Source of the DNA: Methanobacteriota archaeon
GTDB taxonomy: Archaea; Thermoplasmatota; E2; DHVEG-1
Length of the DNA stretch: 64,000 nucleotides
Assembly (NCBI GenBank): GCA_026394495.1
Contig: JAPKYE010000028.1
Location: 6,691 to 70,690 of the forward strand
Direction of reading: 5' to 3'
The notes below the pieces were generated by a model. That model had not been told where the DNA came from and ran no database searches. It worked only from the letters and a program-made list of their open reading frames with translations. Shown one piece after another: positions 22,164 through 62,505 of this stretch. Every line of letters starts with the position of its first letter. The first letter of the stretch is position 1. The position numbers and the translations under genes are program-made.

Positions 22164-24008
22164 ATGCAATTTACTGTAAAAAAACGCGATGGCCCTGCAC
22201 GAATCGGCGAGCTTACTATTGACCAATCCATAGTTACTACCCCTACGATTCTCTATGTTCACACCACACGATGTACTGCACCAGATTTTGCGGATATGCT
22301 TTTAACAAATAATATAGCGAAAACACAGAAACCTGCTTTGAAAGTTCTTGGGAGTATTTTTTCAAAAGAGAATGTTACGGCAAATGAACTGACTCTATCT
22401 GATTATTTGTTGTATCCAAAAGATGTCCCAACGCAATTACATAAAGATGCATTCAAACATATAGATAAAAAGAACGCAGGATGTGTCATTGTTCCCGCGG
22501 ATCCATTGCTAATCCCTGATATAACACAAGACTCCACTGCAACCATATTTATTGTTGCGAATGCTGCTCAACTCTTCTCTCAGCAGTCCGCATTCATTAG
22601 TTTCATTATTCAATTACGAGAGCACATCGGCTATCAGAAAACAATCTATCTTCCTTGCCTTGGTGATCCGACGAATCTTGCGGTTTTTACCTATATGGGT
22701 ATTGATCTCTTTGACTCGATGGCAGCGGTTCTTGCTGCACGAAACAATATTTTCTTATTTTCGACGGGTCCCTATCAAAAAAACGATCTGAGTGAACTTC
22801 CCTGCAGCTGCCCTGCTTGTACTAATGCAGGAAATGATCCATCGAAAATGGGTTACCCTGAGATCCTTCAGCACAACAACCATGGTCTTTACAACGAGTT
22901 GAAACAAATCAGAAATGCGATCACTCAAGGACAACTCAGAGAACTTGTGGAAATCAGGGTGCGAGCACATCCTGAACTCACCGCAGTTCTTCGACATCTT
23001 GATTCTGATCATTACCCTTTTCTTGAAGAAAGAACTTCTCTAATACGAAAACATCCGTTGATTGCGACAACAAAGGAAGCACTCACCCGTCCGGAGGTAC
23101 GACGATTTCAAGAACGAGTAATTCATCGTTACAAAAAACCAAAAAACGCAAAAATTTTACTTTTGCTACCTTGCTCATCAAAGAAACCGTATTCGTTTTC
23201 AAAATCACATAACCTCTTCCAACAACGGCTTTTTGGTGCGAAAAACCCGTCTGTCGTCCATGAACTCATCATCACCTCCCCTCTTGGCGTTGTCCCAAGA
23301 GAACTCGAACTTATCCCTCCTGCTTCATCCTATGATATCTCTGTCACTGGCCACTGGGATGAAGATGAAAAACACATGATTCGCACACTTCTTCAGACAT
23401 ACCTCAAAAAAAACAAGTACGAAACAGTGATCATACATCTCCCGTTAGGTCTTGCAGAGTTTGTCACTGATCTTTTTGTGGACCCAATCATCACCTGTAC
23501 CGATAAACCAACATCAGAGGAATCCTTACACAACCTTTCTCTAGCCTTAGAAAAAACCACAGTATCCTACGACAACATCCCTGTTTCAATACGTGTAAAA
23601 GAAAACATGAAAGCAATAGCCAACTTTCAATTCGACGAAAAAGCTGCAGACATCCTTTTCAACGAAAGCGAAGTACGAGGAAAATACCCGTACTGGAAAC
23701 TTCTCTCAAATAAAAAACAAATAGGGATGATCACCCAGGAACGCGGATTTCTATCACTCACACTTGATGGGGCAGAACGATTGAAACAATCAGGAACATA
23801 TTGGGTAGACATCGCTGATGATTTCATCTTGAAAGGATCGTTGTTTGCCCCAGGCGTCAAAGATGCAGACTCACTGATTCGAATTGGCGATGAAGTTGTC
23901 GTAACGAGGAATAAATTAGTCTGTGGCGTTGGTGTCGCCCAGATGAACGGTACAGAAATGAAAGAATCTACAAAAGGGGAAGCAGTGAAACTGAGACATA
24001 TCGCGTAA
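22164..24008 (+). CDS. arcS: Archaeosine synthase ArcS (TGT-like domain + Zn-binding CxCxxC + PUA), alpha subunit of the ArcS/RaSEA system
   Basis: N-terminal KKRDGPARIGEL TGT-like fold; CSCPAC zinc motif; ArcS signature PC-x3-KPY-x2-S-x2-H present as LLPCSSKKPYSFSKSH; C-terminal PUA-like domain. Confidence 0.75.
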   Translation: MQFTVKKRDGPARIGELTIDQSIVTTPTILYVHTTRCTAPDFADMLLTNNIAKTQKPALKVLGSIFSKENVTANELTLSDYLLYPKDVPTQLHKDAFKHIDKKNAGCVIVPADPLLIPDITQDSTATIFIVANAAQLFSQQSAFISFIIQLREHIGYQKTIYLPCLGDPTNLAVFTYMGIDLFDSMAAVLAARNNIFLFSTGPYQKNDLSELPCSCPACTNAGNDPSKMGYPEILQHNNHGLYNELKQIRNAITQGQLRELVEIRVRAHPELTAVLRHLDSDHYPFLEERTSLIRKHPLIATTKEALTRPEVRRFQERVIHRYKKPKNAKILLLLPCSSKKPYSFSKSHNLFQQRLFGAKNPSVVHELIITSPLGVVPRELELIPPASSYDISVTGHWDEDEKHMIRTLLQTYLKKNKYETVIIHLPLGLAEFVTDLFVDPIITCTDKPTSEESLHNLSLALEKTTVSYDNIPVSIRVKENMKAIANFQFDEKAADILFNESEVRGKYPYWKLLSNKKQIGMITQERGFLSLTLDGAERLKQSGTYWVDIADDFILKGSLFAPGVKDADSLIRIGDEVVVTRNKLVCGVGVAQMNGTEMKESTKGEAVKLRHIA

Positions 24009-33704: not shown

Positions 33705-34478
33705 TTATAATTGCAGTACTTTTCGTGCAAACGTAAGATACCCGGTATGCCCAAGCATATCAAAACTCGGACGCGTCCCATGCTCCGAGACAATCATCTC
33801 CCGCTGGATATTCTCCATGGTTTTTATTTCGATAAACGGTTTCTGATGCAACGCATTCACAGTCAGTTCCACTTGGCTAATCAACGGGGAATACGCACAG
33901 AAATACCCGCTGACCTTCAACGCATTCCATGCATGAGAAACAGCATCCCAAGGGTCTGGGATATCAAGGATTACTGCATCCAGGTTTTCTTCATCAATCC
34001 CTAAGGTCACATCCTTTTGTTTTGTTGTCACAAAACCATCAAGCCCAGAATGTCTGAGGTTTTCCATTGCATGCTCAATGAAATCCTCACGAAGATCATA
34101 CGAAATCACATTGCCCGTTGGTGCAACCGCTGTTGCAAGAACCGTTGTAAGCGAACCTGAACCAATGCCTGCCTCAAGGACGATCTGACCTGATTCAATA
34201 GCACAATTCATGATGATATGAGCAGCATCCCGGGGAAGAATAATCTGCGCACGACGTTTCACACAGGTGAGTTTATCTTTTAACGAAGGAGCAACAACCC
34301 AGAATAATTTATTGCCCAACTCAATTTTTTTCCCATACGTTTTTCCAACCAATGATGATGGATCCAATACGCCAACACCCCGTATTTTATCGGTTTTTCC
34401 AGAGGTATGAACAAGATATTTCCGATACGCCGAATCAATAAGAACAACAATATCCCCCATCTCCACATTTGTCTTCAT
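33705..34478 (-). CDS. trmI: tRNA (adenine57/58-N1)-methyltransferase TrmI (Gcd14 family)
   Basis: GCD14 N-terminal beta-domain + SAM-binding LEAGIGSGSLT motif. Confidence 0.8.
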   Translation of the reverse strand: MKTNVEMGDIVVLIDSAYRKYLVHTSGKTDKIRGVGVLDPSSLVGKTYGKKIELGNKLFWVVAPSLKDKLTCVKRRAQIILPRDAAHIIMNCAIESGQIVLEAGIGSGSLTTVLATAVAPTGNVISYDLREDFIEHAMENLRHSGLDGFVTTKQKDVTLGIDEENLDAVILDIPDPWDAVSHAWNALKVSGYFCAYSPLISQVELTVNALHQKPFIEIKTMENIQREMIVSEHGTRPSFDMLGHTGYLTFARKVLQL

Positions 34479-35524
34479 CGCATTTCACCTGAAAAATCAA
34501 CACAAGACCCAAAACCAAGGCTTTCAAGGTTACGCTGATCCAGCCACTGCTCTTTACAACCACAGGAGAGATCATCAAACACATGGATATCCTGAGAAAG
34601 AGAAAACATACGAATCGCGGTAAGAACACCAGTATCACAGGTTCTACAGTTATGCGCACCTCTGATGCTTCCCCCACCAGTGACATCACATTGGATTCTA
34701 ACCGTCCCAACAAGGTTTTTCGTGCTTTTCAAGATTTCCACAACACTCCACAGCCACGGCGGCCGGTATTGTCTACGTCTCCACAAATGTTCCACAACCG
34801 TACGTCGTTGAACATTCACCGGATTCAACGAAATCGTATCAGAATACGATGCAACAGCTTGAATGGTACTGATGCCATCATTGAGTGCTTCTTCTTCTGA
34901 AAGAAACGGCGGTTTCACAAGCACATAGGTTTTCACCTTGCAATGATATTTTTTAAGAAGCATTGCAGCTTTTTTGTAATCATCGAAAACAAACCCTTTG
35001 TTTATTGCATGTTCTCGTATGAAATCGTTAGATGTCTCAAGCCCGATGCCGACCTCAAGAGTCTTCTGACGAATAAGTTTAGTTACGTCCGATAACGTCT
35101 CATCAGTGATGTATTCTGGCCTTGATTCAACAACTATTTTTTGGGTCTTTTCTGCGAGATCTAAAAGAATCTTTGTACGAACCGATACAGGTATCTCACA
35201 TTCATCAAAAAAACTCCCTGACGTAAAAATTTTCACAATAGGCTGCCCGGTGTATTTCTCCATCGCAGCAGTATATTGTTTCATCAGCTCATCAGAAGAA
35301 ACACTGCTTAATGCGCTGTCGTTGAAATATCCGCACATACTGCACCCCGACTGAAGCGCCCAAGTGCATCCACGGGTCCGAAGAATCATCACAAACGCAT
35401 CAACAACAGTTCCATTCAACAAATCTTTTTCAGACCAAAAACTCACTGGTTTATCCTTATCGAACGGTTTTTTTGAATGATGTTCCTCTTTGAGGTTTTT
35501 ACAAAAACGAAACAGTTCATTCAT
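34475..35524 (-). CDS. Radical SAM protein, TIGR01210-like; candidate archaeosine synthase beta subunit (RaSEA)
   Basis: Cys cluster RTRGCTWALQSGCSMCGY near the N-terminus; ~350 aa; arcS nearby. Confidence 0.5.
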   Translation of the reverse strand: MNELFRFCKNLKEEHHSKKPFDKDKPVSFWSEKDLLNGTVVDAFVMILRTRGCTWALQSGCSMCGYFNDSALSSVSSDELMKQYTAAMEKYTGQPIVKIFTSGSFFDECEIPVSVRTKILLDLAEKTQKIVVESRPEYITDETLSDVTKLIRQKTLEVGIGLETSNDFIREHAINKGFVFDDYKKAAMLLKKYHCKVKTYVLVKPPFLSEEEALNDGISTIQAVASYSDTISLNPVNVQRRTVVEHLWRRRQYRPPWLWSVVEILKSTKNLVGTVRIQCDVTGGGSIRGAHNCRTCDTGVLTAIRMFSLSQDIHVFDDLSCGCKEQWLDQRNLESLGFGSCVDFSGEMR

Positions 35525-36931: not shown

Positions 36932-36972
36932 ATTTTATTTTCTCCTCCCTCTTTTATAAAAAATTTGAGGTA

Positions 36973-37044
36973 TGCGGGCACCGGGATTCGAACCCGGGCA
37001 AACAGCTTGGGAAGCTGCAATCATAACCACTAGATCATACCCGC
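36973..37044 (-). tRNA. tRNA-Gly (anticodon CCC)
   Basis: Reverse complement GCGGGTATGATCTAGTGGTTATGATTGCAGCTTCCCAAGCTGTTTGCCCGGGTTCGAATCCCGGTGCCCGC folds as a cloverleaf: 7-bp acceptor, D-arm, anticodon loop UUCCCAA, T-arm GGTTCGAATCC; A discriminator. Confidence 0.85.
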
Positions 37045-37047
37045 AAG
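37024..37047 (+). repeat. 24-bp direct repeat copy A (tRNA-Gly 5' end nt 1-21 + 3 nt flank), putative att core
   Basis: TAACCACTAGATCATACCCGCAAG identical to 38130-38153. Confidence 0.7.
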
Positions 37048-38323: not shown

Positions 38324-39337
38324 ATGAAGAGTCTCATCATTGACTACATGCGACTCATGAGGATGCCGGGGATTATCGGCCTAGCCATCACACCAATCGC
38401 CGGGGCTCTCAGCGTCAACAACACATCTCTTGTAGCATTGATCCCCCTGTTTTTTATCGGTGCGATATCAAAAATCTATGGATTTGTCATGAATGATTAT
38501 TTCGATGTCGAGGTAGATAAATTAAGCCCGGATCTCTCTCAAAGAGCGCTTGTGAAAGGTACTATTACAAAAAAACATGCGCTCGCCATCATCGTTAGTT
38601 GTTTTTTTATCGGTTACATAGCGATATTTGTTTTTTTCTTCAAAAACGAGCCTTTTTTCTATATGGGTCTTTTCTGCATTGTAGTAGCAGACATCCTGGG
38701 TTTCATCTATAACAAATACGGAAAACAGTTCATCGGCTCTGATTTTCTTATCGCACTTGCGGAATCGTTGTTTTTCCTCTTCGGAGCACTCATGGTTCTT
38801 CCCAACGGGTCTCTTGGTCTTCTCACATGGATCCTGTTCATAATTCTCTTCAATGAACAACTCTATATGAACGTAATAGTAGGTGGACTAAAAGATGCGG
38901 ATCACGATCCACTCATGAACGTAAAAAACATCGCTCTTGCAAGCGGAGTAAAAGTTGGACCAGAAAACACCTTATCTGTACCTCTAAATTTTAAAATATT
39001 TGGGTTAAGCGAACGCTTCATCTCTTCTTTTCTCGTATTTGTTCCTTTTCTTTTTCTCGGGATCAAATACGAACTCTGGCAAATAGGATTATTGTTAATA
39101 ATTATCGTTTTCCTCATCTCTGAAAGCACATTTATGTTGAGCAGAAAGCGATTTAACAGAAAAGAAATACGAAGACTCATCGGCGCTCAACTAATAACAT
39201 GGCATCCGTTCATGCCAATCATACTTGTCTCAGTTGTTGGCTTCTGGTACCCATTTCTATTAGTTTTTTTAGCTTTGTTTGGATACATTTTCTTTTCATT
39301 ACTGATGGGGCAAAAACTTGATGCCCCAGCAATGTAA
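38324..39337 (+). CDS. UbiA-family prenyltransferase (DGGGP synthase-like) paralog 1
   Basis: Asp-rich motif NDYFDVEVDK; 8-9 TM helices. Confidence 0.7.
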   Translation: MKSLIIDYMRLMRMPGIIGLAITPIAGALSVNNTSLVALIPLFFIGAISKIYGFVMNDYFDVEVDKLSPDLSQRALVKGTITKKHALAIIVSCFFIGYIAIFVFFFKNEPFFYMGLFCIVVADILGFIYNKYGKQFIGSDFLIALAESLFFLFGALMVLPNGSLGLLTWILFIILFNEQLYMNVIVGGLKDADHDPLMNVKNIALASGVKVGPENTLSVPLNFKIFGLSERFISSFLVFVPFLFLGIKYELWQIGLLLIIIVFLISESTFMLSRKRFNRKEIRRLIGAQLITWHPFMPIILVSVVGFWYPFLLVFLALFGYIFFSLLMGQKLDAPAM

Positions 39338-39354: not shown

Positions 39355-39690
39355 TTACGGGGTGATTACTTTTTCTGATTTCATAAGTACCGATGCGATC
39401 TCCTGCATGTCGCTGACCCGCCCAGCTGCAAGTTTTCCCTCAAGCTTATAAAAATCAACACATGTTCCACACGCGATCAGATCCACTCCTGCTTTCCCAA
39501 GAGCATCCAATGCATCGAGCACAGGGGATCCTTTTACCAACAACTGAACCGCAGAGTTATAGAAGATAATGATATCAGGTTTTTTCTCAAGACCCCAAAG
39601 CTTTCGTAAAAAATTCCCCATCATCTTCTCACCTAATTCATCGCTCCCTCTTCCAAAAATTTTACTGTTCAGAATAATAGTGGTTTTCAT
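39355..39690 (-). CDS. DsrE/DsrF-like (TusD-like) sulfur-relay family protein
   Basis: MKTTIILNS…ACGTC conserved Cys region; GAGGTGA RBS supports the Met-17 start. Confidence 0.45.
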   Translation of the reverse strand: MKTTIILNSKIFGRGSDELGEKMMGNFLRKLWGLEKKPDIIIFYNSAVQLLVKGSPVLDALDALGKAGVDLIACGTCVDFYKLEGKLAAGRVSDMQEIASVLMKSEKVITP

Positions 39691-39781
39691 GATATGTATC
39701 ACCTCAAATTGAAAATGATGAATACGTGATTTCCTCAAAAACCTTCTGCCCAGATATACGAAAAAAGAAACGTATTATTTC

Positions 39782-40471
39782 TTATCTCTTTTCAAATAGA
39801 TTTTTGTGATTAGAAATATAATTCATAGTACGAGAAAAACTAGTTCCTTTGTTTCGCTTGATGAATGCATAAATATCCTCAACAGTATCGATATCTGACC
39901 ATTCAGGGAGGATATGCACAGTTTTTTTATTGCGTTTCAGAACGGCTATAGTCTCCTGAAAAACCGCTGACGTACTCCAATGAATACCTTCAAAAAACGT
40001 TGGAGAAAAACCATCTTTTTTACATCCAAACAAATAGTATCCTCCATCGACAGACGGGCCCAGGGCAACATCATTAGTTCTCAATGCCCTTATAGCTTGT
40101 TTGATGAAATAAACCGGTAGATCAGGGGTATCGCTTCCTAGTAAAACAACAGTGTTGAATCCTTCAGCAAACGTTTGTAAAAAACTGTTTTTCATTCGTT
40201 CTCCAAGATCATTGCCTTTCTGCGGAAGATAATGATATTGTTTGCCTAGCCATGCCCTCATTTCATCATATGCTGTTTTGGGGGAAAAACAGATAAAAAA
40301 TGGAAGATGTAGCGATTCAATCAACTTAAGAGAATCCTGAACAAAATTCGTATACAACTCCCTAACCACTGTTTCATCGAGATTTGTTGCAAGACGGGTT
40401 TTTACGTTACCATTTTTTGGGTATTTTACGAAAAGAAGAATGCAGGCATCCTTGATTTCATCCATAATCAC
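39782..40471 (-). CDS. DUF2064/TIGR04282-like glycosyltransferase (partner of radical SAM/Cys-rich proteins)
   Basis: ILLFVKYPKNGNVKTRL…LGERM…VVLLGSDTPDL…DGGYYLFG matches the TIGR04282-type nucleotide-diphospho-sugar transferase fold. Confidence 0.6.
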   Translation of the reverse strand: MIMDEIKDACILLFVKYPKNGNVKTRLATNLDETVVRELYTNFVQDSLKLIESLHLPFFICFSPKTAYDEMRAWLGKQYHYLPQKGNDLGERMKNSFLQTFAEGFNTVVLLGSDTPDLPVYFIKQAIRALRTNDVALGPSVDGGYYLFGCKKDGFSPTFFEGIHWSTSAVFQETIAVLKRNKKTVHILPEWSDIDTVEDIYAFIKRNKGTSFSRTMNYISNHKNLFEKR

Positions 40472-40475
40472 ACAT

Positions 40476-41600
40476 CTATGACGATTTCTTCTGATTTTCT
40501 TTTTCCAATGCTTCCTCGAATAATTTCAGGATATCAATTACTTCAACATCGTTTTTTATTTTTACGAACTCCTCATAACAAGTCAGGCAGTCGCACACCA
40601 TGGTTTTTGCGTGTTGTTTTGCTTCGTTGAGTCGTATCATACGATTTTTTGTATTCGCAGGATCATAGTCTTGATTCCAATGATAACAACACAACGCCTG
40701 ATCACGAATATTCTGCATTTCAACAAGAGTACTAAATCGACTGATAGCCTTGCGAGTGGCATCGTCTCGTTTATACCGCCTCGTCAACCGACACGAATCA
40801 TGAAACGTCACCGCATCCCGTATTTTTAACGCTGGGAATTTCTCAACATGCTGCATCAGATATTCCACAACACTATACACCTCAAATGTACAATGATATC
40901 GTTTTTTTAACCAAAGAAGTGCTTCTAAACACTCCGCACAACCCGTGAGAACAACAGAAGGATTACATCTCTGTATTTTCTCATGCAACGCTTCCATGCA
41001 GTGATCAGCCAAATCAAACTCCCCTTGCAGTAATTGAGGAACACCACAACACGTGGTCAACCCGCCCAACACAACATACGGTGTCCCAACATGATCAAGA
41101 AGGTGTTTCGTCCGCCGTATCGTCTCAAACGAATAGATATAACAACCTGGATAAAACAAAACCGAAGCAGAAGAAGGCATTGTTTCCATATGACGCGCAA
41201 GATCAGGTGCTTTCTGCATTTTCATCGCAACATACAAACCTTGTGCAGTTTGTGCAATCGGACCAAGATCTGGTCCTCTGATCGCAAGATACCGCTTGTA
41301 CCCATACGGCTTCTCCTTGCGAAGTTTATATTTACACACAAGCATCATTTCATCCCGATGCAATCCTTCAGGACATGCGGGAACGCAGCGCCTACATTGA
41401 ACACATGAGAATGTGAAATCTTTAATTTTATCCGGAATATTTGTTTCTGCTTGCGCTGATTTGTTTAAATCCTGAACAGAAAAATCGTGTTTAAAGACAG
41501 GGCACACACTAAGACATTTACTGCATAAAATACAACCAGATAATTCCTCCGCAACCTTTGTGCATATCATTTTTGTAAAAGTTTCTTGTGTTTCTGCCAT
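40476..41600 (-). CDS. HdrD/GlpC-like iron-sulfur protein: two [4Fe-4S] ferredoxin motifs + two CCG domains
   Basis: CILCSKCLSVCP and CVQCRRCVPACP; CCG motifs TTCCGVPQ and ALCCYHW. Confidence 0.65.
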   Translation of the reverse strand: MAETQETFTKMICTKVAEELSGCILCSKCLSVCPVFKHDFSVQDLNKSAQAETNIPDKIKDFTFSCVQCRRCVPACPEGLHRDEMMLVCKYKLRKEKPYGYKRYLAIRGPDLGPIAQTAQGLYVAMKMQKAPDLARHMETMPSSASVLFYPGCYIYSFETIRRTKHLLDHVGTPYVVLGGLTTCCGVPQLLQGEFDLADHCMEALHEKIQRCNPSVVLTGCAECLEALLWLKKRYHCTFEVYSVVEYLMQHVEKFPALKIRDAVTFHDSCRLTRRYKRDDATRKAISRFSTLVEMQNIRDQALCCYHWNQDYDPANTKNRMIRLNEAKQHAKTMVCDCLTCYEEFVKIKNDVEVIDILKLFEEALEKENQKKSS

Positions 41601-41620
41601 AGACGTATGTTCAAAATATC

Positions 41621-42358
41621 TTAATGGTTTAGATTCCTAAATTTTTTCTGAGCTGCAAATACGACGATTCCAAGAAGACATACTGCAGTAATAACCACAC
41701 CAATGGACATCCATGATATTTTTCCAACAAGGACGCTTTCTGTAAAGAGATCACCAAAAACCACGACCAGGATTATCGCCGGGAGCATACATAACCAAGA
41801 CCAAAAAAGATATGTTTTAAATGATACTTTTGTTAATCCAAACGCATAGTTCAACAAATTAAAAGGAAGCAGAAAATTTAAACGCGCGAGAGCAACAATG
41901 AGAGCACCGTGTTTTTCAGTTAAATCATCGAGTTGCTGTAATCGCGTATGGCTGGACAGCCATCGCTCAGCGGAATCGCGAGCGAAATGCCGTGCAATGA
42001 TAAATGCGATGCCTGCTGAAAGAGTTGAGGAGATACTTACAAGAATAATTCCGACTACGCTACCAAAAACAGAACCAGCAATTATTCCGAGAAGTAAACC
42101 AGGTAAGGCAACAACTGTTAGAATGATATAAATCCCAATATATCCCAATGGTGCCCAGAAGCCTAGTGATTGAATCCAGTTTCTGATAGTTAAAAAAAAT
42201 TCTTTTAATTGTACGTTATACATGACACTAAAAATGAGAACAACGATAATGAGCCCAAGTAGAAAAGGAGGTTTCCAGATATCACGAATTGTTTTCTTTT
42301 TTGATTGTTGTACTTCATCATTATGTTGAATTGTCTCTTTCATTATTTTACTCACCAA
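41621..42358 (-). CDS. TVP38/TMEM64 (DedA/SNARE-associated) family membrane protein
   Basis: DedA-type multi-TM protein with conserved GxxxG…P core. Confidence 0.65.
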   Translation of the reverse strand: MVSKIMKETIQHNDEVQQSKKKTIRDIWKPPFLLGLIIVVLIFSVMYNVQLKEFFLTIRNWIQSLGFWAPLGYIGIYIILTVVALPGLLLGIIAGSVFGSVVGIILVSISSTLSAGIAFIIARHFARDSAERWLSSHTRLQQLDDLTEKHGALIVALARLNFLLPFNLLNYAFGLTKVSFKTYLFWSWLCMLPAIILVVVFGDLFTESVLVGKISWMSIGVVITAVCLLGIVVFAAQKKFRNLNH

Positions 42359-42371
42359 AGTTCATAACGTG

Positions 42372-43325
42372 CTAAACGAGTGCTCCACCGCAGGATGATC
42401 CATGACCTGCGGCGCAACCAAAACAATGAGTTCCTGTCACAATTGGTCGTGTAGATAATTTTGCTTGATTAAAATCTTTTATATGTTGTGGAACCTTTGA
42501 TGCAACATGTAGCCCTTGTGCTAGGTTAAAATCGCAATCATAGAGTGTTCCATCCCATCCAATGTTAATCTGATGACGACACATCAGTCCTTCTATTGTT
42601 TCTGGGTTAAACGATGATTTGAGGAGATCACGGTATTGTTTCTCCTGGTTATTTTGCTGCAGATCTTGTAAAAAACGTCCGATTGGCATATTTGTGATCG
42701 TGATCAAACGTGTAAAGTTGATCCCGTACTCCTCACCCAATACCTGATGATATTCCTTCTCGAGTACTAACTGCTCAGGTGGTAATACTGGATTAAGTGA
42801 ATTAAAGACAAGGATAAGTGATAACGAAGAATCTACACCGTATCCGATCGTATTTAACATTTGCAGTGATTTTATACTTTTTTCAAATACCTCTTTACCT
42901 CGTTGTAAACGCACTTCTTCTTCCAGGTAACAGGGTAATGATGCTACGAGTTGAATTTTGTTTGTTTTGAGAAAATTAATGAGTGATTTCATCTCAGGAT
43001 TTTTAAGCAGGGTAAGATTGGTTCTTACTTGTATTTGATGGCCCTGTTTATGTAAAACCTGAATAAATTGTGTTAAACACGGGTGAAGTTCAGGAGCACC
43101 GCCCGTGATATCAATGAAACACTTTGGTAATTGCTTGGTCACCTCAAGAATTGCTTGCATCGTTGACCATTCCATCATCTCAACCCTGGATGGTGACCCC
43201 TGTACATGGCAATGTCTGCATTCTTGATTACAGCGAAATCCGATGTTCACCTGCACGGTTTTTAGTGAATCGCACCGCAGATTTTTTCCGGTGACTTCTT
43301 TGATTTTTTGTTCAAATTCATTCAT
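42372..43325 (-). CDS. Radical SAM/Cys-rich domain protein (TIGR04167, ArsS-like)
   Basis: CNQECRHC (CxxxCxxC) at the N-terminus; C-terminal Cys-rich tail HCFGCAAGHGSSCGG; neighbours are the two glycosyltransferase types that co-occur with this family. Confidence 0.65.
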   Translation of the reverse strand: MNEFEQKIKEVTGKNLRCDSLKTVQVNIGFRCNQECRHCHVQGSPSRVEMMEWSTMQAILEVTKQLPKCFIDITGGAPELHPCLTQFIQVLHKQGHQIQVRTNLTLLKNPEMKSLINFLKTNKIQLVASLPCYLEEEVRLQRGKEVFEKSIKSLQMLNTIGYGVDSSLSLILVFNSLNPVLPPEQLVLEKEYHQVLGEEYGINFTRLITITNMPIGRFLQDLQQNNQEKQYRDLLKSSFNPETIEGLMCRHQINIGWDGTLYDCDFNLAQGLHVASKVPQHIKDFNQAKLSTRPIVTGTHCFGCAAGHGSSCGGALV

Positions 43326-43387
43326 TGTTTGTACCTTTGAAAAACAAGTCTTTCAATCATGGCAACCATTTAAAGATTTCTTTTTCA

Positions 43388-44110
43388 TCATTCTTTTGGA
43401 TACCGATGCCATTTCGTTAATCTCTCTGCAGAAACCCCGCAGCGATAAAGGACGAGTATCAAAATATTCAGCAGAGTTGTATAGAATGTGCCTTGTTTTT
43501 CCCATCTCCTTGGAGATGTAACAACTCGATCAGGAAGAATACAGATTTTTTCTTTTGCTTTTTTGATACGTAACATAAGTTCAAGATCCTCCATCAAAGG
43601 AAGATCCGGGTATCCGCCTAACTGCTCAAAACATGTTTTTCGAAGAAAAATAACTTGGTCCCCATAGGGGATTCGCGTCAGCTGAGATCGAGTGGTTGAT
43701 AAGGCAGCGACAACCTTTGGTAATAATTTTTTTGAGTTGATCGTAAGGGTGAATGCACCGCCAACAAAATTTTTTTGTTTTAACACTTCTTTGATACGTG
43801 CGAGGGCGTTCTGGGGCAGGAACGTGTCTGCATGAAGAAACATAAGAATCTCCCCTTTAGCTATAGCTGCGCCTGCATTCATCTGTTTAGCACGTCCTTT
43901 CATGGTTGTCAGAGTTGTTACAGTTTTATCAGTAAGCGTTTGAATGGTATCTTTCTGAGGGCTTCCGTCAACAACGATGATTTCGTAGGACTCAGTGGTT
44001 TGCGACTGATGAATATGTTCAAGCAGCATATTGATGGTCTCAGATTCATGAAGAACAGGAATAATAATGGAAAAACTACATGATGCTGGTTTTTCTGTTT
44101 TCTTTATCAT
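43388..44110 (-). CDS. Family-2 glycosyltransferase (TIGR04283-like); start at the internal Met (MIKKTEKPAS…)
   Basis: GT2 signature SIIIPVLHE…IIVVDGSPQ…; the table start is over-extended through hydrophobic junk. Confidence 0.65.
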   Translation of the reverse strand: MIKKTEKPASCSFSIIIPVLHESETINMLLEHIHQSQTTESYEIIVVDGSPQKDTIQTLTDKTVTTLTTMKGRAKQMNAGAAIAKGEILMFLHADTFLPQNALARIKEVLKQKNFVGGAFTLTINSKKLLPKVVAALSTTRSQLTRIPYGDQVIFLRKTCFEQLGGYPDLPLMEDLELMLRIKKAKEKICILPDRVVTSPRRWEKQGTFYTTLLNILILVLYRCGVSAERLTKWHRYPKE

Positions 44111-44186
44111 AGTACAATACTGTATACATAAAAGAAATGATAAAATATATGGTATCCGCTTTCCTATTTCTTGTACCGAGATCTTT

Positions 44187-45062
44187 ATGAAAAAAAATAG
44201 ATCAATACTCATAATAAGTTTGCTTTTTATTAGTATACTTATCAGATGTGTTCCGACCGGATTGTGCGAGACTTCAACTGGTTCTATTTTCAATGTAGGT
44301 GGAACCGGCGCAGGAAATTACACGAACATCCAAGATGCGATCAATGTGGCATCTGCTGGAGATACCGTGTTTGTGTTCAACGGTACATATCATGAGAACC
44401 TGATCGTAAACACAAGCATTCAGCTGATTGGCGAAGACAGGAATACTACGATTATTAACGGAAGTAGGAACGGATGCGTAATTATCCTTACTGCAGACCA
44501 GGTGACGATAACTGGATTTACCATCACCTGGGGAGGACTAATGTTTCCCGATGCAGGAATATGTGTTGAATCATCAGATAACACGATTACCAAAAACACA
44601 ATTGTGGAGAATTACTATGGGATGCATATGTCGTATTTCTCAGGAAATACTTTGATTTCTGAGAATTACATTGCAAACAATCATCAATGCGGGATTTATT
44701 TCAGCAGATCTTCAAACAACCGCCTCATCGGAAACACAGTTATGAATCAACCATCGAACGGGTTTGGGCTGTATGAATCCTCAAACAACAACACCATCAT
44801 TGGAAATACCCTAAGCCATAATGGGTTCTGCGGAGTCAACATCCGAGATTCATTTAACAATCATGTCTCCAATAATCAGTTCATCGGCAACAACATTGGT
44901 TTGCATGTGCCGCCACCTGATCATTATACCGCGGTTTGCAGTAACTTTTTTTCAGACAACCACGTTGCCTATGAAGAAGGATATGATGTCTCTGCGTTTT
45001 CTCTGGTGATCGTGATGGCCCTTATTTTCATTGTTTTTATTGTGCTAAAGAAAAAAAGTTGA
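44187..45062 (+). CDS. Secreted right-handed parallel beta-helix (NosD/pectin-lyase-fold) repeat protein with C-terminal TM anchor
   Basis: Signal peptide MKKNRSILIISLLFISIL; repeated N-rich beta-helix rungs; C-terminal hydrophobic anchor + KKKS. Confidence 0.6.
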   Translation: MKKNRSILIISLLFISILIRCVPTGLCETSTGSIFNVGGTGAGNYTNIQDAINVASAGDTVFVFNGTYHENLIVNTSIQLIGEDRNTTIINGSRNGCVIILTADQVTITGFTITWGGLMFPDAGICVESSDNTITKNTIVENYYGMHMSYFSGNTLISENYIANNHQCGIYFSRSSNNRLIGNTVMNQPSNGFGLYESSNNNTIIGNTLSHNGFCGVNIRDSFNNHVSNNQFIGNNIGLHVPPPDHYTAVCSNFFSDNHVAYEEGYDVSAFSLVIVMALIFIVFIVLKKKS

Positions 45063-45080
45063 GTGACTTGCGTCTTCTTT

Positions 45081-45569
45081 CTACAAGTATTTTTTCCAAA
45101 GAAACAGGGTTGCGATGAAAACAATAAATGCAGGGATAATCACGAAAAGCATCGAGAGAAACGCATAAGGGACATACGAGTCAAAGCAAAGGACATACAA
45201 AGGATACAAAAACATCAACGCAGACCCAGCAAGACCAGTATACCACGCATAGGATTTTGAACGGACCATTGCTAGACACGTAAGAATAAGCAATACACCA
45301 GAAATGAACAATACGCCTGCGAGAATAAAAGAGTTCAGAATATATTGCAGGGAATACTTCCACAACACAGCGACGATCGCAATGTTTGCAGTATTGACAA
45401 ACACATACCATGCGATTGCTGCTAACGAAAGATACAACGAATACGCTAATAACTTTTTTTTATCAGTGACAAAAGGGGCATCATCATTGCATTTTAGGCA
45501 TTTCACCATACTATCAAACCCATTCGCTGAGAGATATACTGATAGACTGACATTAATTTTTCCCACCAT
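45081..45569 (-). CDS. Hypothetical polytopic membrane protein
   Basis: 4 predicted TM helices; ORF only. Confidence 0.4.
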   Translation of the reverse strand: MVGKINVSLSVYLSANGFDSMVKCLKCNDDAPFVTDKKKLLAYSLYLSLAAIAWYVFVNTANIAIVAVLWKYSLQYILNSFILAGVLFISGVLLILTCLAMVRSKSYAWYTGLAGSALMFLYPLYVLCFDSYVPYAFLSMLFVIIPAFIVFIATLFLWKKYL

Positions 45570-52509: not shown

Positions 52510-53382
52510 ATGAGAAAAATAAAAGCCATCTGGGAGCTCATGCGACTTGAACACGGTATTATGCTTGCGCTCGCAATCCTCGTTGGTGCCCTTATCGCTC
52601 AAAGGACTCTTCCCACACTTGATAAGTTCATTTTCACGTTTTTCACTGCGTTGTTTCTTGAAGCAAGTACCTTTGCTCTTAATGATTACTATGATGTCGA
52701 GATTGACAAAAAAAACAACCGAACCGATCGACCTTTGGTCCGTGGAGATCTTTTACCAAAAACCGCGCTGTATATCTTTTTTATCTGTTTTCCTCTTGGT
52801 ATCCTTTGTTCGTATTTTGTGAATATCCCTTGTTTTGTTATTGCATTGATCACCGCGATATTCGCCATTATTTATGATATGATACTAAAAAAAATAAAGC
52901 TGCTGGGGAATTTTTTCATCGCATACATTATGGCGATCCCGTTTGTGTTCGGTGCAGCAGCTGTGATGAACAATAGCCTTGCGTTTCCCCCAGCGATATG
53001 GATCATTGCATTGATCGCGTTTCTCGCTGGTGCAGGTCGAGAAATCATGAAGGATGTGATGGATTTCAAAGGAGACAGCGAACGTGGCGTGAAATCATTT
53101 CCCAGGTATATCGGTATTCGAAAATCCAATATTGTTTCCGCATTGTTTTATTTTTTTGCTGTTGTTCTTAGTTTTATTCCTTTTCTCTTTTTTGGATATG
53201 GATTGTATTATCAAAACTATTATTATCTTTTCATCATCATACTAACTGATGTGATGTTTCTTTGGACGATACTTGCACTACTAAAAACAAAGGAAATTAA
53301 CATGAAGTTTCATCGAAGATTCACCTTGGTTGCCATCTTTATTGGTCTCCTTGGGTTTTTAATCCCTGTTTTTATTTGGTGA
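52510..53382 (+). CDS. UbiA-family prenyltransferase (DGGGP synthase-like) paralog 2
   Basis: NDYYDVEIDKKNNRTDRPL Asp-rich motif; multi-TM. Confidence 0.7.
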   Translation: MRKIKAIWELMRLEHGIMLALAILVGALIAQRTLPTLDKFIFTFFTALFLEASTFALNDYYDVEIDKKNNRTDRPLVRGDLLPKTALYIFFICFPLGILCSYFVNIPCFVIALITAIFAIIYDMILKKIKLLGNFFIAYIMAIPFVFGAAAVMNNSLAFPPAIWIIALIAFLAGAGREIMKDVMDFKGDSERGVKSFPRYIGIRKSNIVSALFYFFAVVLSFIPFLFFGYGLYYQNYYYLFIIILTDVMFLWTILALLKTKEINMKFHRRFTLVAIFIGLLGFLIPVFIW

Positions 53383-58765: not shown

Positions 58766-59674
58766 ATGCAATACAACTTAAACCATCTCCAAAAACTTGA
58801 ATCAGAAGCAATCTACGTTCTCCGAGAGGTTGCTGCACAATTCGAACGACCAGTCCTTCTTTTCTCAGGAGGAAAAGACTCCATCATCATGGGACATCTT
58901 GCCAAAAAAGCGTTCCAACCCGCACCAATACCATTTCCATTCCTTCACATAGACACCGGCCATAACTTCCCAGAAACCATAGAATACCGAGACGATTTCA
59001 TAAAAAAACTTGGTGTACGACTCATCGTCGGATCAGTCCAACACTCCATCGACACCGGACGCGTACGAGAAGAAAAAGGACGATACGCAAGCAGAAACAT
59101 ACTACAAACCGTAACACTCCTAGATACGATTCATGAACAGAAATACGATGCAGCAATAGGAGGCGGAAGAAGAGACGAAGAAAAAACACGAGCAAAAGAA
59201 CGATTCTTCTCCCATCGAAACGAAATCGGACAATGGGACCCCAAAAACCAACGACCCGAACTTTGGGATCTTTACAACGGAAGAAAACACCATGGAGAAC
59301 AATTCCGCATATTTCCACTTAGTAACTGGACAGAGATGGATGTATGGCAATATATCCTAAAAGAACAGATTTCCATCCCAACAATCTATTTTTCCCACAA
59401 ACGAAAATGCATCACTAGAGACGGCGTGATTCTTGCATACTCACCATATCTAAATATTGATCCTGATGAGAAAAAAAACATACAAACAATGACTGTCCGC
59501 TGTCGAACCGTAGGAGACATGACCTGCACAGGACTTGTTGAATCCGCTGCGAAAACCGTCGAGGAAATCATCGAAGAAGTCGCTGCCTGCAGATTTTCTG
59601 AGCGTATCAGCCGCGCAGATGATCTTCGATCAGAAAACGCGATGGAAGACCGAAAAAAGGAGGGATATTTCTAA
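58766..59674 (+). CDS. cysD: Sulfate adenylyltransferase subunit 2
   Basis: PAPS-reductase-fold PP-loop LLFSGGKDS. Confidence 0.88.
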   Translation: MQYNLNHLQKLESEAIYVLREVAAQFERPVLLFSGGKDSIIMGHLAKKAFQPAPIPFPFLHIDTGHNFPETIEYRDDFIKKLGVRLIVGSVQHSIDTGRVREEKGRYASRNILQTVTLLDTIHEQKYDAAIGGGRRDEEKTRAKERFFSHRNEIGQWDPKNQRPELWDLYNGRKHHGEQFRIFPLSNWTEMDVWQYILKEQISIPTIYFSHKRKCITRDGVILAYSPYLNIDPDEKKNIQTMTVRCRTVGDMTCTGLVESAAKTVEEIIEEVAACRFSERISRADDLRSENAMEDRKKEGYF

Positions 59675-59676
59675 CC

Positions 59677-60945
59677 ATGAACCAAAAAACCTATCAAGAA
59701 ATGGAGCTCCTTCGATTCACAACCGCAGGAAGCGTCGATGATGGAAAAAGCACGCTCATCGGCAGGCTTCTCTACGACACAAAAACGATTTTTCAGGATC
59801 AACTCAGAAACCTAGAACGACTCTGCTTGCAGCGAGGCGAACAACTCAATCTTGCATTGCTCACCGATGGACTGCGCGCAGAACGAGAACAAGGAATAAC
59901 AATTGATGTCGCATATCGATATTTTGCAACACCAAACAGAAAATTCATTATAGCTGATACCCCCGGCCATATTCAATATACACGGAACATGGTGACTGGC
60001 GCATCAACAGCTAACCTTGCATTGATCCTTGTCGATGCACGAAACGGGGTGACAGAACAAACCCATCGTCATCTATTCATCGCCTCACTCTTACAGATTC
60101 CACATGTAGTGATCTGCATCAATAAAATGGATCTTATGAACTACAAACAAGAAGTTTATGAATCAATAAAAAATCAATTAAAGGATTTCATCGCAAAACT
60201 CAACATCCCAGATATTTCATTTATCCCTATCAGCGCACTACAAGGAGACAACGTGGTTGAACCATCAAAACAGATGCTATGGTACAACGGTCCAACAGTT
60301 CTTTATCATCTGGAAAACGTCCATATAGGAAGCGATGAAAACCTGATTGACTGCAGATTTCCCGTTCAATACGTGATCAGACCGCGATCCGATGAGTATC
60401 ATGATTACCGGGGATACGGCGGAAAAATAGCGAGCGGCGTATTCAAAGTAGGAGACAAAATAAAGGTTCTCCCCTCAGGTTTTACCACTACAATAACATC
60501 AATAGAATCCCCAGATGGATCCATACAAGAAGCATTTCCGCCGATGTCAGTGGTGATTCAGCTTACCGATGACCTTGATATCAGCCGCGGAGACATGCTA
60601 GTCCGGGAACATAACCAGCCGACGGTGAGTCAACATATCGATGCAATGATCTGCTGGATGAACAATTGTTCTCTTCGAGCGGAAAATAAATACATTCTGC
60701 GACATACCACAAAAGAAGTCAAATGTGTGATAAACGAAATATCGTACAAACTTGATATCAACACGTTACATCGAATAGAAAATGCTACTGAACTTGGACT
60801 AAACGACATAGGAAGAATAACCCTAAAGACAGCACAACCGATTTATTTTGATAGCTACCGCAGGAACCGCTCCACAGGCTGCTTCATTTTAATCGACGAA
60901 AAAACAAACGAAACCGTAGGAGCAGGAATGATACGAGACGTGTAA
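59677..60945 (+). CDS. cysN: Sulfate adenylyltransferase subunit 1 (GTPase)
   Basis: G1 motif GSVDDGKSTLIGRLL, DTPGH, NKMD. Confidence 0.88.
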   Translation: MNQKTYQEMELLRFTTAGSVDDGKSTLIGRLLYDTKTIFQDQLRNLERLCLQRGEQLNLALLTDGLRAEREQGITIDVAYRYFATPNRKFIIADTPGHIQYTRNMVTGASTANLALILVDARNGVTEQTHRHLFIASLLQIPHVVICINKMDLMNYKQEVYESIKNQLKDFIAKLNIPDISFIPISALQGDNVVEPSKQMLWYNGPTVLYHLENVHIGSDENLIDCRFPVQYVIRPRSDEYHDYRGYGGKIASGVFKVGDKIKVLPSGFTTTITSIESPDGSIQEAFPPMSVVIQLTDDLDISRGDMLVREHNQPTVSQHIDAMICWMNNCSLRAENKYILRHTTKEVKCVINEISYKLDINTLHRIENATELGLNDIGRITLKTAQPIYFDSYRRNRSTGCFILIDEKTNETVGAGMIRDV

Positions 60946-60949
60946 AAAT

Positions 60950-61939
60950 ATGGATGAAAAAAAAGAGTTATTTCAGAACTTGAAAGGAAAAGGGCTCATC
61001 ATTCATCACTGGGACACCGATGGCATCTGCTCCGCCCACATACTCCTGCATCATTTATCGGATAAAAAAATAGTGAATAAAACACCGATTATTGGTAACT
61101 ATTTTCTTACCGAACAAGAACTAAAATCCTATGCTAAATATGATTTCATCATCATTTTGGATATGTCACTTCCTGAATCAAACATAAAGATTCTTGCGCA
61201 AAAAGCGCAGGTGTTTATTTTTGATCATCATCTTGGATCAGTGATTCCCTATGTGTTTCACCACAACCCAGTAATCAACGGAGAAAAACCAGAGAAGTAT
61301 CCTTCAACAAGCTGGATAATAAATACATTTTTTGGGAAAGCAGTAAACATCCATGCGATCTTAGGTGTTGTCGGCGACCATGAAAACAACATCCAAAAAA
61401 ACAAAGTGTTTTCATCCGTAATCTCTGAGTTCTGCAAAACATCAAACCTAAATTTCGCTGATCTCGTGCAAATGACGTATCTGCTTGACTCGTGTTACAA
61501 AGTTGGCGACAAAACAATGGTTGAAAAACTGCCAAAACTGCTTCTCAAAGAGACAGATGGCCACAGTATTGTTCAAAATGATATATTAAAAAACAATCTT
61601 ATGCTCCTTGAACAAGAGATAACAAAACATATCATACATCACGGTGAAGAAATCAACGGAGTGCTTGTAAAAAAAATTGATACAAAATACAATATTATTT
61701 CGACGGTGACACGAAAGATCGCGTGGGACAGCAAAAAAAACACGCTTGTTATTAACACTGGTTTTTTTGCAGATAGAAATCAGATTTATGTACGAAGCAA
61801 CAAAAACATGGAACCGCTGATTGCACGAGGGAAAACACTAGGATACAACTGCGGAGGAAAAAAAGAGGTGCTAGGAGCAATTGTACCAAAAGAGGAAACA
61901 GATTCTTTTGTTCAAGAGATACTACGTTTTCTTCAATGA
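60950..61939 (+). CDS. DHH-family phosphoesterase (NrnA-like; candidate 3'-phosphoadenosine-5'-phosphate phosphatase)
   Basis: HHWDTDGICSAHIL (DxD) and FDHHLG (DHH) motifs; embedded between cysN and cysC. Confidence 0.65.
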   Translation: MDEKKELFQNLKGKGLIIHHWDTDGICSAHILLHHLSDKKIVNKTPIIGNYFLTEQELKSYAKYDFIIILDMSLPESNIKILAQKAQVFIFDHHLGSVIPYVFHHNPVINGEKPEKYPSTSWIINTFFGKAVNIHAILGVVGDHENNIQKNKVFSSVISEFCKTSNLNFADLVQMTYLLDSCYKVGDKTMVEKLPKLLLKETDGHSIVQNDILKNNLMLLEQEITKHIIHHGEEINGVLVKKIDTKYNIISTVTRKIAWDSKKNTLVINTGFFADRNQIYVRSNKNMEPLIARGKTLGYNCGGKKEVLGAIVPKEETDSFVQEILRFLQ

Positions 61940-61957
61940 AAAAAAACGAGGTTTGAT

Positions 61958-62491
61958 ATGAAGGAACAAAAAGGCTTCACCGTCTGGTTCACTGGACTTC
62001 CCTGCTGCGGGAAAACAACAATCGCTGATCAACTGGCGATCATTCTAAAAAAACAGGGATATCTTGTTGAGCGACTTGATGGGGATATCATACGAAAAGA
62101 CCTCACAAGTGATCTTGGTTTTTCCAAAGAAGATCGCGACGAAAACATCAGACGAGTAACCTTTGTTGCAAAGCTTCTCACAAGAAATGGCGTTGTGGTT
62201 CTTGCCACCTTTGTTTCGCCCTACCAGGCGCAACGAACACAAGCACACAAAGAAATTGGTGCCTTCGTTGAAGTCTATGTCCGCTGTCCAAAAGACGTAT
62301 GCATGAAACGCGATGTGAAAGGAATGTACAAAAAAGCACTTGCAGGAAAACTCAAAGGATTCACTGGTGTCGACGACCCCTATGAAGAACCACAACATCC
62401 GGAAATCATTGTTGATACAGATAAAGAAACCGTAGATGAAAGCATAGAACACATCCTATACGCATTGAAACAATTAGGATATACAAAATAA
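61958..62491 (+). CDS. cysC: Adenylylsulfate (APS) kinase
   Basis: APS-kinase fold; P-loop GLPCCGKTTIA (unusual Cys-Cys in the Walker A motif). Confidence 0.8.
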   Translation: MKEQKGFTVWFTGLPCCGKTTIADQLAIILKKQGYLVERLDGDIIRKDLTSDLGFSKEDRDENIRRVTFVAKLLTRNGVVVLATFVSPYQAQRTQAHKEIGAFVEVYVRCPKDVCMKRDVKGMYKKALAGKLKGFTGVDDPYEEPQHPEIIVDTDKETVDESIEHILYALKQLGYTK

Positions 62492-62505
62492 GGAGTGAAA
62501 ACCAA

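Follow-up and report, generated by a model that had tools for sequence, protein, structure and literature searches.

An archaeal ArsS-type cassette in which an HdrD-like iron-sulfur protein accompanies DedA

Arsenosugar biosynthesis has been characterised at the step of ArsS alone. This radical S-adenosylmethionine (SAM) enzyme transfers a 5'-deoxyadenosyl radical onto the trivalent methylarsenical dimethylarsenite (DMAs(III)) to give 5'-deoxy-5'-dimethylarsinoyl-adenosine, a reaction established for the cyanobacterial enzyme alone (PMC13598754; bioRxiv 10.64898/2026.04.29.721666). In Synechocystis sp. PCC 6803, arsS is co-transcribed with arsM in an ArsM-ArsS pathway (Xue et al. 2019). The bacterial 'rSAM/selenodomain-associated' cassette, which NCBI calls arsenosugar biosynthesis, joins ArsS to two transferases and usually to the membrane protein DedA, alone or fused to a flavoprotein reductase; three of its genes already carry NCBI names as 'arsenosugar biosynthesis' proteins, and the two 'arsenosugar glycosyltransferases' and DedA are named solely from gene context. 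About 10% of the DedA proteins in COG0398 are multi-domain, the commonest fusion being with PF07992+PF02852, for which no function has been proposed (PMC10127716). Here we analyse a related locus in a 64,000-nucleotide stretch of contig JAPKYE010000028.1 (GenBank assembly GCA_026394495.1), hereinafter the window. We read it, with moderate confidence, as the Thermoplasmatota version of the ArsS organoarsenical ('arsenosugar-type') cassette, in which the reductase has been replaced and clade-specific accessories have been added. It is a real and undescribed variant of the cassette; that it amounts to a pathway of a new kind is unlikely.

The six-gene locus and its ArsS

Six open reading frames (ORFs) lie on the minus strand between 39355 and 44110 (Table 1). 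In transcription order they encode the GT2-type transferase, ArsS, DedA, an HdrD-like protein, the DUF2064 transferase and a DsrE-like protein, and they are separated by 62, 13, 20, 4 and 91 bp, respectively. The packed, same-strand arrangement claimed by an earlier annotation of this DNA (hereinafter the original prediction) thus holds, and its family assignments for all six genes are upheld by curated hidden Markov models (HMMs; TIGR04167, TIGR04282 and TIGR04283), Pfam matches and motifs. ArsS and both transferases score above the cut-offs of their models, and the predicted core of a radical SAM protein, two transferases and DedA does correspond to the TIGR04167/04282/04283 cassette, its three model-defined genes all adjacent and on the same strand within 39782-44110. 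The outer end of the locus, originally put at 44293, has to be moved inwards: that position merely marks the longest TTG-started ORF, and the ATG at 44110 is favoured as the GT2 start because the resulting 240-residue product matches the lengths of its homologs (234-255 residues).

Table 1 Genes of the cassette and its accessories in the window
Feature	Coordinates	Strand	Evidence and remarks
DsrE-fold protein, 111 residues, stand-alone YedF C-terminal-type domain	39355-39690	-	PF02635, 27.6 bits (cut-off 22.7)
DUF2064/TIGR04282 protein, CofC-like nucleotide-diphospho-sugar transferase fold	39782-40471	-	TIGR04282, 192.1 bits (cut-off 134); DUF2064
HdrD-type Fe-S protein, two CxxCxxCxxxCP motifs and two CCG domains	40476-41600	-	motifs; Pfam Fer4_8/CCG
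DedA/VTT membrane protein, TVP38-type	41621-42358	-	PF09335, 90.8 bits (cut-off 33.9); multiple transmembrane (TM) segments (hydropathy)
ArsS, radical SAM, Cys form	42372-43325	-	TIGR04167, 397.9 bits (cut-off 300); Radical_SAM and DUF3641
GT2-type transferase, first gene of the operon	43388-44110	-	TIGR04283, 249.6 bits (cut-off 182); Glycos_transf_2
NosD-like parallel beta-helix surface protein	44067-45062	+	Pfam NosD and Beta_helix; divergent from GT2
Small 4-TM membrane protein, ~140 residues	45081-45569	-	convergent with NosD-like; probable start M21, ~45509

The archaeal setting of the cassette is likewise confirmed, by archaeal marker genes in the window and by archaeal database records of identical proteins. 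Among the window genes, archaeal L3, archaeal GltX, ArcS and RaSEA each score above cut-off; proteins identical to the ArsS and to the HdrD-like protein are deposited at NCBI as 'MAG: ... [Euryarchaeota archaeon]', on a 77-kb contig, and all of the named close homologs belong to Thermoplasmatota. A scan for promoters and terminators, which used bacterial consensus patterns that are uninformative for an archaeon, found sites no more numerous than in shuffled sequence.

The ArsS match extends over positions 2-303 of the 303 in the TIGR04167 profile. The protein carries the radical SAM motif CX3CX2C (C32/C36/C39), a DUF3641 domain scoring 176 bits and a C-terminal motif of the CxxC...GSS(C/U) type, CFGCAAGHGSSCGG, in which the selenocysteine position is a cysteine encoded by TGC. 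All 14 invariant positions of the family are kept, including the three motif cysteines and C249/C264/C301/C304. TGA is found at the GSS(C/U) position in none of the 82 ArsS copies sampled, all of them Cys forms. A PDB sequence search with ArsS returns no ArsS structure, the best match being YydG (E 1e-4). Compared with the ArsM-ArsS system of Synechocystis sp. PCC 6803, the TIGR04167 family, the CX3CX2C motif and the Cys-rich C-terminal DUF3641 are shared and the reaction is presumably the same. The two differ in that arsM is co-transcribed with arsS in the cyanobacterium, whereas the window has no nearby arsM, comes from an archaeal and probably anaerobic host, and adds DedA, an Fe-S reductase, two transferases and a DsrE-fold protein to the operon.

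To place this ArsS among its relatives we drew on a family search (E <= 1e-30; about 376 representatives of 50%-identity clusters, cited by P numbers) and on metagenomes, where scanning with an alignment of diverse ArsS sequences gave 80 loci at 42-57% identity; the 45 whose flanks reach 3 kb or more were analysed as the diverse set (loci are cited by L numbers). A scan of a genome collection with the single ArsS protein gave one locus, L001 (Hymenobacter), which was set aside as irrelevant, with 57 residues matched within a 522-residue ORF. In the family, P0256 is a triple fusion of GT2, DUF2064 and ArsS, which supports the linkage of the core families of the cassette. P0135 is a flavin reductase-ArsS fusion, and P0164 fuses ArsS to CMD/AhpD, another thiol redox domain attached to ArsS chemistry. 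Seven homologs (P0143, P0150, P0160, P0152, P0153, P0169 and P0241) have N-terminal extensions of 120-430 residues, which have no Pfam match and, for the first three, no NCBIfam match either.

DedA, its redox partners and the conserved module

DedA lies within 6 kb of ArsS in 15 of the 45 diverse loci, and 11 of these 15 ArsS-linked DedA proteins have a thiol/disulfide redox partner, fused or adjacent and usually a flavoprotein. The long 'DedA' ORFs of about 750 residues are fusions. In six loci (e.g. L053:9259-11496) DedA is fused to a class-I pyridine-nucleotide-disulfide oxidoreductase (Pyr_redox_2+Pyr_redox_dim), a flavoprotein disulfide reductase (FDR); fusions to Fer4_8+CCG (L050:1090-2814) and to a C_GCAxxG_C_C 'putative redox-active' domain (L017:8112-9356) also stand beside ArsS. 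A separate FDR gene adjoins DedA in L012, L013, L017 and L062. The order ArsS-DedA-(reductase)-GT2-DUF2064 is found in L013, L053, L059, L061 and L089, and GT2 and/or DUF2064 occur within 6 kb of ArsS in 19 of the 45 loci.

The locus in the window resembles the bacterial cassette in its four core families and their similar order, and differs in having an HdrD-type Fe-S/CCG protein where the bacterial cassette has the class-I oxidoreductase; the window clade further adds the DsrE-fold, 4-TM and NosD-like proteins. The closest orthologs of the window DedA, those of L012 and L013 (45-46% identity), stand in the order ArsS-DedA-FDR. Since these nearest relatives carry FDR exactly in the slot taken by the HdrD-like gene, the latter is better described as a replacement than, as originally proposed, an expansion of the cassette, and the HdrD-type enzyme is best read, from gene order and homology, as a non-orthologous substitute for the DedA-linked flavoprotein reductase. 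The evidence favours an Fe-S/CCG enzyme that would suit anaerobes in place of a flavoprotein. The earlier suggestion of a different substrate, so far as it was drawn from the redox module, is not sustained, a redox partner of DedA being a general companion in ArsS cassettes.

The DedA-PF07992+PF02852 fusions already described involve the same VTT-domain family and likewise pair DedA with a dedicated redox enzyme (PMC10127716). They differ from the window in that the published note ties them to aerobic metabolism, whereas the partner here is a predicted oxygen-sensitive Fe-S enzyme, encoded by a separate gene 20 bp away in the context of an ArsS cassette. In the literature searched we found neither a link between DedA fusions and the ArsS cassette nor a general association of DedA-reductase pairs with ArsS. 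The HdrD-like, DsrE-like, 4-TM and NosD-like additions are likewise absent from it, as is any connection of arsenosugar genes to DedA or Hdr-type proteins, in agreement with the original statement that the function of the expanded archaeal version appears undescribed. The DedA-tied thiol/disulfide reductase is a recurrent and hitherto unremarked component of ArsS cassettes; it gives the presently unexplained DedA-Pyr_redox fusions a concrete context and points to a membrane redox step in the biosynthesis of organoarsenicals, possibly arsenolipids.

The HdrD-like protein shares with HdrD an N-terminal ferredoxin domain with 2x[4Fe-4S] followed by two full CCG domains of the form CX(30-33)CCX(32-35)CxxC, both of them complete (C153..CC184/185..C221xxC224 and C270..CC304/305..C338xxC341). 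CCG domains, as in HdrB, HdrD and DsrK, are sites for thiol/disulfide or related substrates and not simple relays. The protein has no hydrophobic segment and is predicted to be soluble (hydropathy). No NCBIfam model matches it above cut-off, the best partial matches being TfrB (66.6 bits, cut-off 385), diclust_near_Sec, LdhH, GlpC and DsrK, and a PDB sequence search gives a weak match to 9ojn alone. Unlike HdrD and DsrK, it has no membrane cytochrome partner, be it HdrE, DsrM or another, in the operon or the clade loci; it differs from HdrD, HdrB, DsrK, TfrB and GlpC also in that the window offers no context of methanogenesis or sulfate reduction and that homologs outside the clade are at most 27% identical. 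Because no Hdr, Dsr or Tfr model passes and neither HdrE nor a methanogenic CoM-S-S-CoB context is present, we call the protein HdrD-like in architecture and not HdrD. Its subfamily is tight: some 105 clusters reach at least 42% identity before the next homologs drop to 27%, and each member looked up sits inside the cassette. Among the 45 diverse loci a single one, L050, has an HdrD-type domain within 6 kb of ArsS; at 23% identity to the window protein, its Fer4+CCG region represents an independent, analogous recruitment rather than an ortholog.

We then compared 11 distinct clade loci (the window, L003, L004, L007, L008, L090, L092, L094, L096, L098 and L099). DedA is followed by the HdrD-like gene in all 11, and the DsrE-like gene lies within about 3 kb of the cassette in 9 of the 10 loci that reach far enough, the exception being L094. 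The GT2 gene stands directly upstream of ArsS in 10 of the 11; in L096 a GT2-like match is nearby, not directly upstream. The same housekeeping genes (M20 peptidase, DeoC, LemA, M48, RFC) flank many of these loci, which on its own would make the association weak evidence, but L090, L092, L094 and L096 have four unrelated sets of flanks and nevertheless keep the same gene order. The HdrD-like and DsrE-like genes are conserved neighbours of the cassette, as the original prediction requires.

Two further genes, encoding the 4-TM and NosD-like proteins, travel with the cassette, so that the module is larger than originally described and spans 39355-45569. The NosD-like gene probably starts at the ATG at 44187, and its product has N-terminal signal-like and C-terminal TM segments; in L004, L007, L008, L090, L092, L096, L098 and L099 the cassette and the DsrE-like gene have a NosD-like gene between them. 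The 4-TM protein has no NCBIfam match. It aligns at 23-37% identity with a protein of 138-154 residues encoded after DUF2064/HdrD-like in relatives, with Y43, L45, W70, Y72, Y76, N79, K105, G112 and A147 invariant. The convergent 4-TM/NosD-like pair is located between DUF2064 and DsrE-like in relatives (L004, L007, L008, L090, L092, L096 and L099) and upstream of GT2 in the window, a local rearrangement that keeps the pair beside the cassette. Within 6 kb of ArsS, neither a DsrE-like nor a NosD-like gene occurs in any of the 45 diverse loci, in which the 4-TM protein was not found either.

One clade member, L094 (NCBI GCA_030740765.1, 6891-14562), has the order FMN reductase-GT2-ArsS-DedA-HdrD-like-Pyr_redox_2-DUF2064 and no DsrE-like or NosD-like gene. 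Its Pyr_redox_2 product is NAD(P)H:ferredoxin-reductase-like, and a dihydrolipoyl-dehydrogenase-type flavoprotein is encoded next, on the opposite strand. The Pyr_redox_2 gene right behind HdrD-like and the upstream FMN reductase gene suggest how electrons reach the HdrD-like protein.

The label 'DsrE-like' holds as regards the fold and the Pfam match, and can be made more precise: the protein corresponds to the C-terminal domain of the YedF type, standing alone. Its start at 39690 is preceded by GGTGAT. It passes TIGR03527 (YedF) marginally, with 111.9 bits against a cut-off of 110 over positions 85-194 of 194, and its L092 ortholog fails the same model at 97.3 bits. The protein belongs to a conserved stand-alone family of 111 residues in Thermoplasmata, whose members JGI labels YedF, and C74-x-T76-C77 (CxTC) is invariant in the 37 sequences aligned. 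An AF2 model (pLDDT 95.5), of a protein predicted to be soluble by hydropathy, matches YchN, DsrEFH and TusBCD in Foldseek (1jx7, 2hy5 and 2d1p; probability 1.00, TM-score 0.65-0.75); C74 aligns with a cysteine of the DsrE-family structures 2fb6 and 2pd2, and the sequence gives no alignment to Cys78 of DsrE/TusD. Compared with YedE-YedF, the similarity is to the C-terminal domain of long YedF; the TusA/SirA-like N-terminal half is missing, and there is no YedE or SelD among the window genes scanned. With DsrE/TusD the protein shares the DsrE/TusD/YchN fold, C74 being a putative counterpart of the conserved family cysteine, and it differs in its invariant CxTC dithiol in place of a single active cysteine and in having no DsrF/H or TusB/C partner. 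The CxTC protein is a candidate carrier or redox mediator. A homolog at 59% identity (L097:1721-3034) lies without a visible cassette on a contig that ends 1.7 kb upstream, and is followed by genes for an Avidin_like protein and a flavin reductase.

The DUF2064 protein matches PDB entry 3cgx (E 1.7e-57), a structural-genomics entry without assigned function.

Arsenic chemistry and competing readings

Family-wide, ArsS is tied to the arsenite methyltransferase ArsM. Fusions of an ArsM-like protein to ArsS make up at least 10 of the 20 long family members scanned, including P0122, the second-closest representative to the window ArsS (51% identity). The fused methyltransferases have arsenite methyltransferase models as their best matches, and Cys columns are conserved in 20-21 of 21 aligned ArsM-like partners. 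These columns fall in the motifs YGCG, VSNCV and GC(I/L)SGA, which we take to be the As(III)-binding cysteines of ArsM/AS3MT. ArsM lies within 6 kb of ArsS in 14 of the 45 diverse loci and is linked to the ArsS of L012 (54% identity). The window ArsS scores as high as ArsM-fused members, and in a rough neighbour-joining (NJ) tree the HdrD-bearing ArsS sequences interleave with the ArsM-ArsS-DedA loci L012, L017 and L021. Redox partners of DedA also occur in cassettes that contain ArsM (L012, L017, L057 and L077). The adjacency or fusion of ArsM to ArsS across the family, P0122 and L012 included, argues that arsenic chemistry has been retained.

In the scheme that we infer, which extends to methylarsenite as the substrate, to the direction of the electrons and to any roles of DedA, the transferases and the NosD-like and 4-TM proteins, ArsS would cleave SAM reductively and place the 5'-deoxyadenosyl radical on DMAs(III). 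The DUF2064 and GT2 proteins would process or transfer the arseno-ribosyl moiety, possibly to a lipid or glycerol acceptor, and DedA would carry either an arsenical or a lipid-linked intermediate to the other side of the membrane. The soluble HdrD-like protein may dock on DedA, its pair of [4Fe-4S] clusters taking up electrons whose source is probably ferredoxin or, in the L094 variant, the NAD(P)H flavoprotein encoded next to it. The CCG clusters of the HdrD-like protein would reduce a disulfide, the likeliest target being the CxTC pair in DsrE-like and/or the Cys triad at the C-terminus of ArsS, and could thereby keep arsenic-binding thiols reduced or feed the conversion of As(V) to As(III). 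As for the methylarsenical, either an ArsM gene in another part of the genome would account for it or the environment would supply it; arsM has been reported in the literature for some Thermoplasmatota metagenome-assembled genomes. If the scheme holds, uncultured sediment archaea would be producers of complex organoarsenicals.

Several observations weigh against this organoarsenical reading. The window ArsS has no genetic linkage to arsM: in agreement with the original prediction, there is no arsM among the window genes scanned, and arsM is absent within 10 kb in all 11 clade loci. No arsenic-resistance gene is seen near the cassette; the window genes scanned include no ars-resistance gene. 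The sole NCBIfam family that the DsrE-like protein passes, TIGR03527, is one of selenium metabolism. ArsS catalysis is reported to be redox-neutral, so ArsS itself has no obvious need of a dedicated reductase. The roles of DedA, GT2, DUF2064, HdrD-like and DsrE-like proteins are putative for every member of their families. Lastly, in L098 (ENA ERZ27275860 k141_1348825) ArsS is missing between GT2 and DedA, where positions 5779-5995 retain a 12-residue remnant, CIRCATGHTSSC, that aligns to ArsS 301-312; DedA, HdrD-like, DUF2064, 4-TM, NosD-like and DsrE-like genes look intact. This points either to gene decay or to a module whose other genes function in the absence of ArsS, and the remainder may therefore have an ArsS-independent role.

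Three candidates for arsenic genes near the cassettes were rejected. The Methyltransf_31 protein of L092 is UbiE/BioC-like and scores 40.5 bits as ArsM against a cut-off of 263; the 'ArsP_1' permease of L094 is SO_0444/SaoE-like and below cut-off; and the window methyltransferase at 33705-34478 is a generic class-I enzyme that adjoins RaSEA.

The alternatives are all unlikely and are taken here in descending order of probability. A small chance attaches to DedA and the HdrD-like, CxTC, 4-TM and NosD-like proteins forming a ferredoxin-driven, membrane-associated relay for chalcogens or metalloids, with the clade ArsS adenosylating a non-arsenic acceptor such as Se or S. The locus would then represent an undescribed archaeal pathway to a seleno- or thio-sugar or lipid, and, more broadly, pairs of DedA and a reductase would act as redox-coupled transporters, so that the DedA-flavoprotein fusions would acquire a function.

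Rather improbable is a selenium or sulfur substrate as such, where ArsS would adenosylate an Se or S species, the DsrE-like and HdrD-like proteins would form a chalcogen relay and the product would be a seleno- or thio-sugar or lipid. The YedF score of the DsrE-like protein and the JGI naming of its homologs speak for it, together with the partial match of the HdrD-like protein to diclust_near_Sec, the selenoprotein members included in TIGR04167, the lack of arsM near any of the clade loci and the persistence of the L098 module without ArsS. DedA has also been linked to selenite (Ledgham 2005, as it appears in the reference list of PMC10127716). This must be set against a YedF match confined to the C-terminal half, the lack of YedE and SelD among the window genes scanned, the uniform Cys forms in the ArsS sample, and the redox partners seen in ArsM-containing loci. 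Moreover, the window ArsS keeps the invariant residues, matches ArsM-fused members in score and groups among ArsM-linked loci in the rough NJ tree.

We also consider it improbable that the HdrD-like protein supplies electrons only, as a ferredoxin-type donor to the [4Fe-4S] cluster of ArsS that performs no disulfide chemistry, with the DsrE-like gene an unrelated neighbour. Radical SAM enzymes do require a donor of low potential, and the 2x[4Fe-4S] domain at the N-terminus resembles a ferredoxin; in addition, flavin reductase is found fused to ArsS, and FMN reductase is found encoded nearby. However, both CCG motifs are complete and conserved, the bacterial counterparts (class-I FDR and C_GCAxxG_C_C) are fused to DedA and not to ArsS, and the DsrE-like gene still accompanies the cassette in loci with unrelated flanks.

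Still more doubtful is a sulfur relay for thio-arsenicals, in which the DsrE-like protein would carry a persulfide, the HdrD-like protein would mobilise it and the NosD-like protein would handle extracellular sulfur, the outcome being either the conversion of oxo- to thio-arsenosugars or a means of dealing with As-S species where the sediment is sulfidic. DsrE3 and TusA carry sulfane sulfur as persulfide for sHdr systems, whose gene clusters resemble the present pairing of a DsrE-family with an Hdr-type CCG protein; the DsrE/TusD fold with a cysteine putatively at the conserved position of the family fits such a role, NosD is the periplasmic part of NosDFY, which is implicated in sulfur delivery to N2O reductase, and the window holds a gene set for PAPS synthesis. 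The module, however, has no TusA, rhodanese or lipoate-binding protein, CxTC resembles a dithiol redox or metal site more than a single persulfide cysteine, NosD-like beta-helix surface proteins are abundant in these genomes (window 6-1208; L096), and neither NosF nor NosY is present.

That the HdrD-like and DsrE-like genes stand beside the cassette merely through the inherited synteny of one lineage, as the shared flanks of many clade loci might imply, is very improbable and largely refuted by the unchanged order within unrelated flanks, the relocated and still adjacent NosD/4-TM pair of the window, the independent Fer4+CCG-DedA fusion beside ArsS in L050 and an HdrD-like subfamily not seen outside the cassette among the members looked up.

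Neighbouring genes

A divergent UbiA-family prenyltransferase of 337 residues is encoded on the plus strand at 38324-39337 and converges on the DsrE-like gene; it scores 61 bits, below all NCBIfam cut-offs, and has no counterpart there in relatives. Another UbiA homolog (52510-53382) falls just below the cut-off of NF009523 (264.8 against 269) and also matches models of DGGGP synthase (geranylgeranylglycerol-phosphate geranylgeranyltransferase), further below their cut-offs.

A sulfate-activation set occupies 58766-63102, with CysD, CysN and CysC above cut-off and a DHH/RecJ-like protein that is possibly a PAP phosphatase; at 62506-63102, an ORF of 198 residues without family match is sulfotransferase-like by eye. 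In L007 a sulfotransferase gene lies about 5 kb from the cassette. Sulfated arsenosugars exist.

The archaeosine tRNA-modification genes ArcS and RaSEA lie within 22164-24008 and 33705-35524, RaSEA overlapping by 4 bp the class-I methyltransferase at 33705-34478, which is weakly PIMT/ArsM-type in fold. A tRNA-Gly(CCC) gene is located at 36972-37045.

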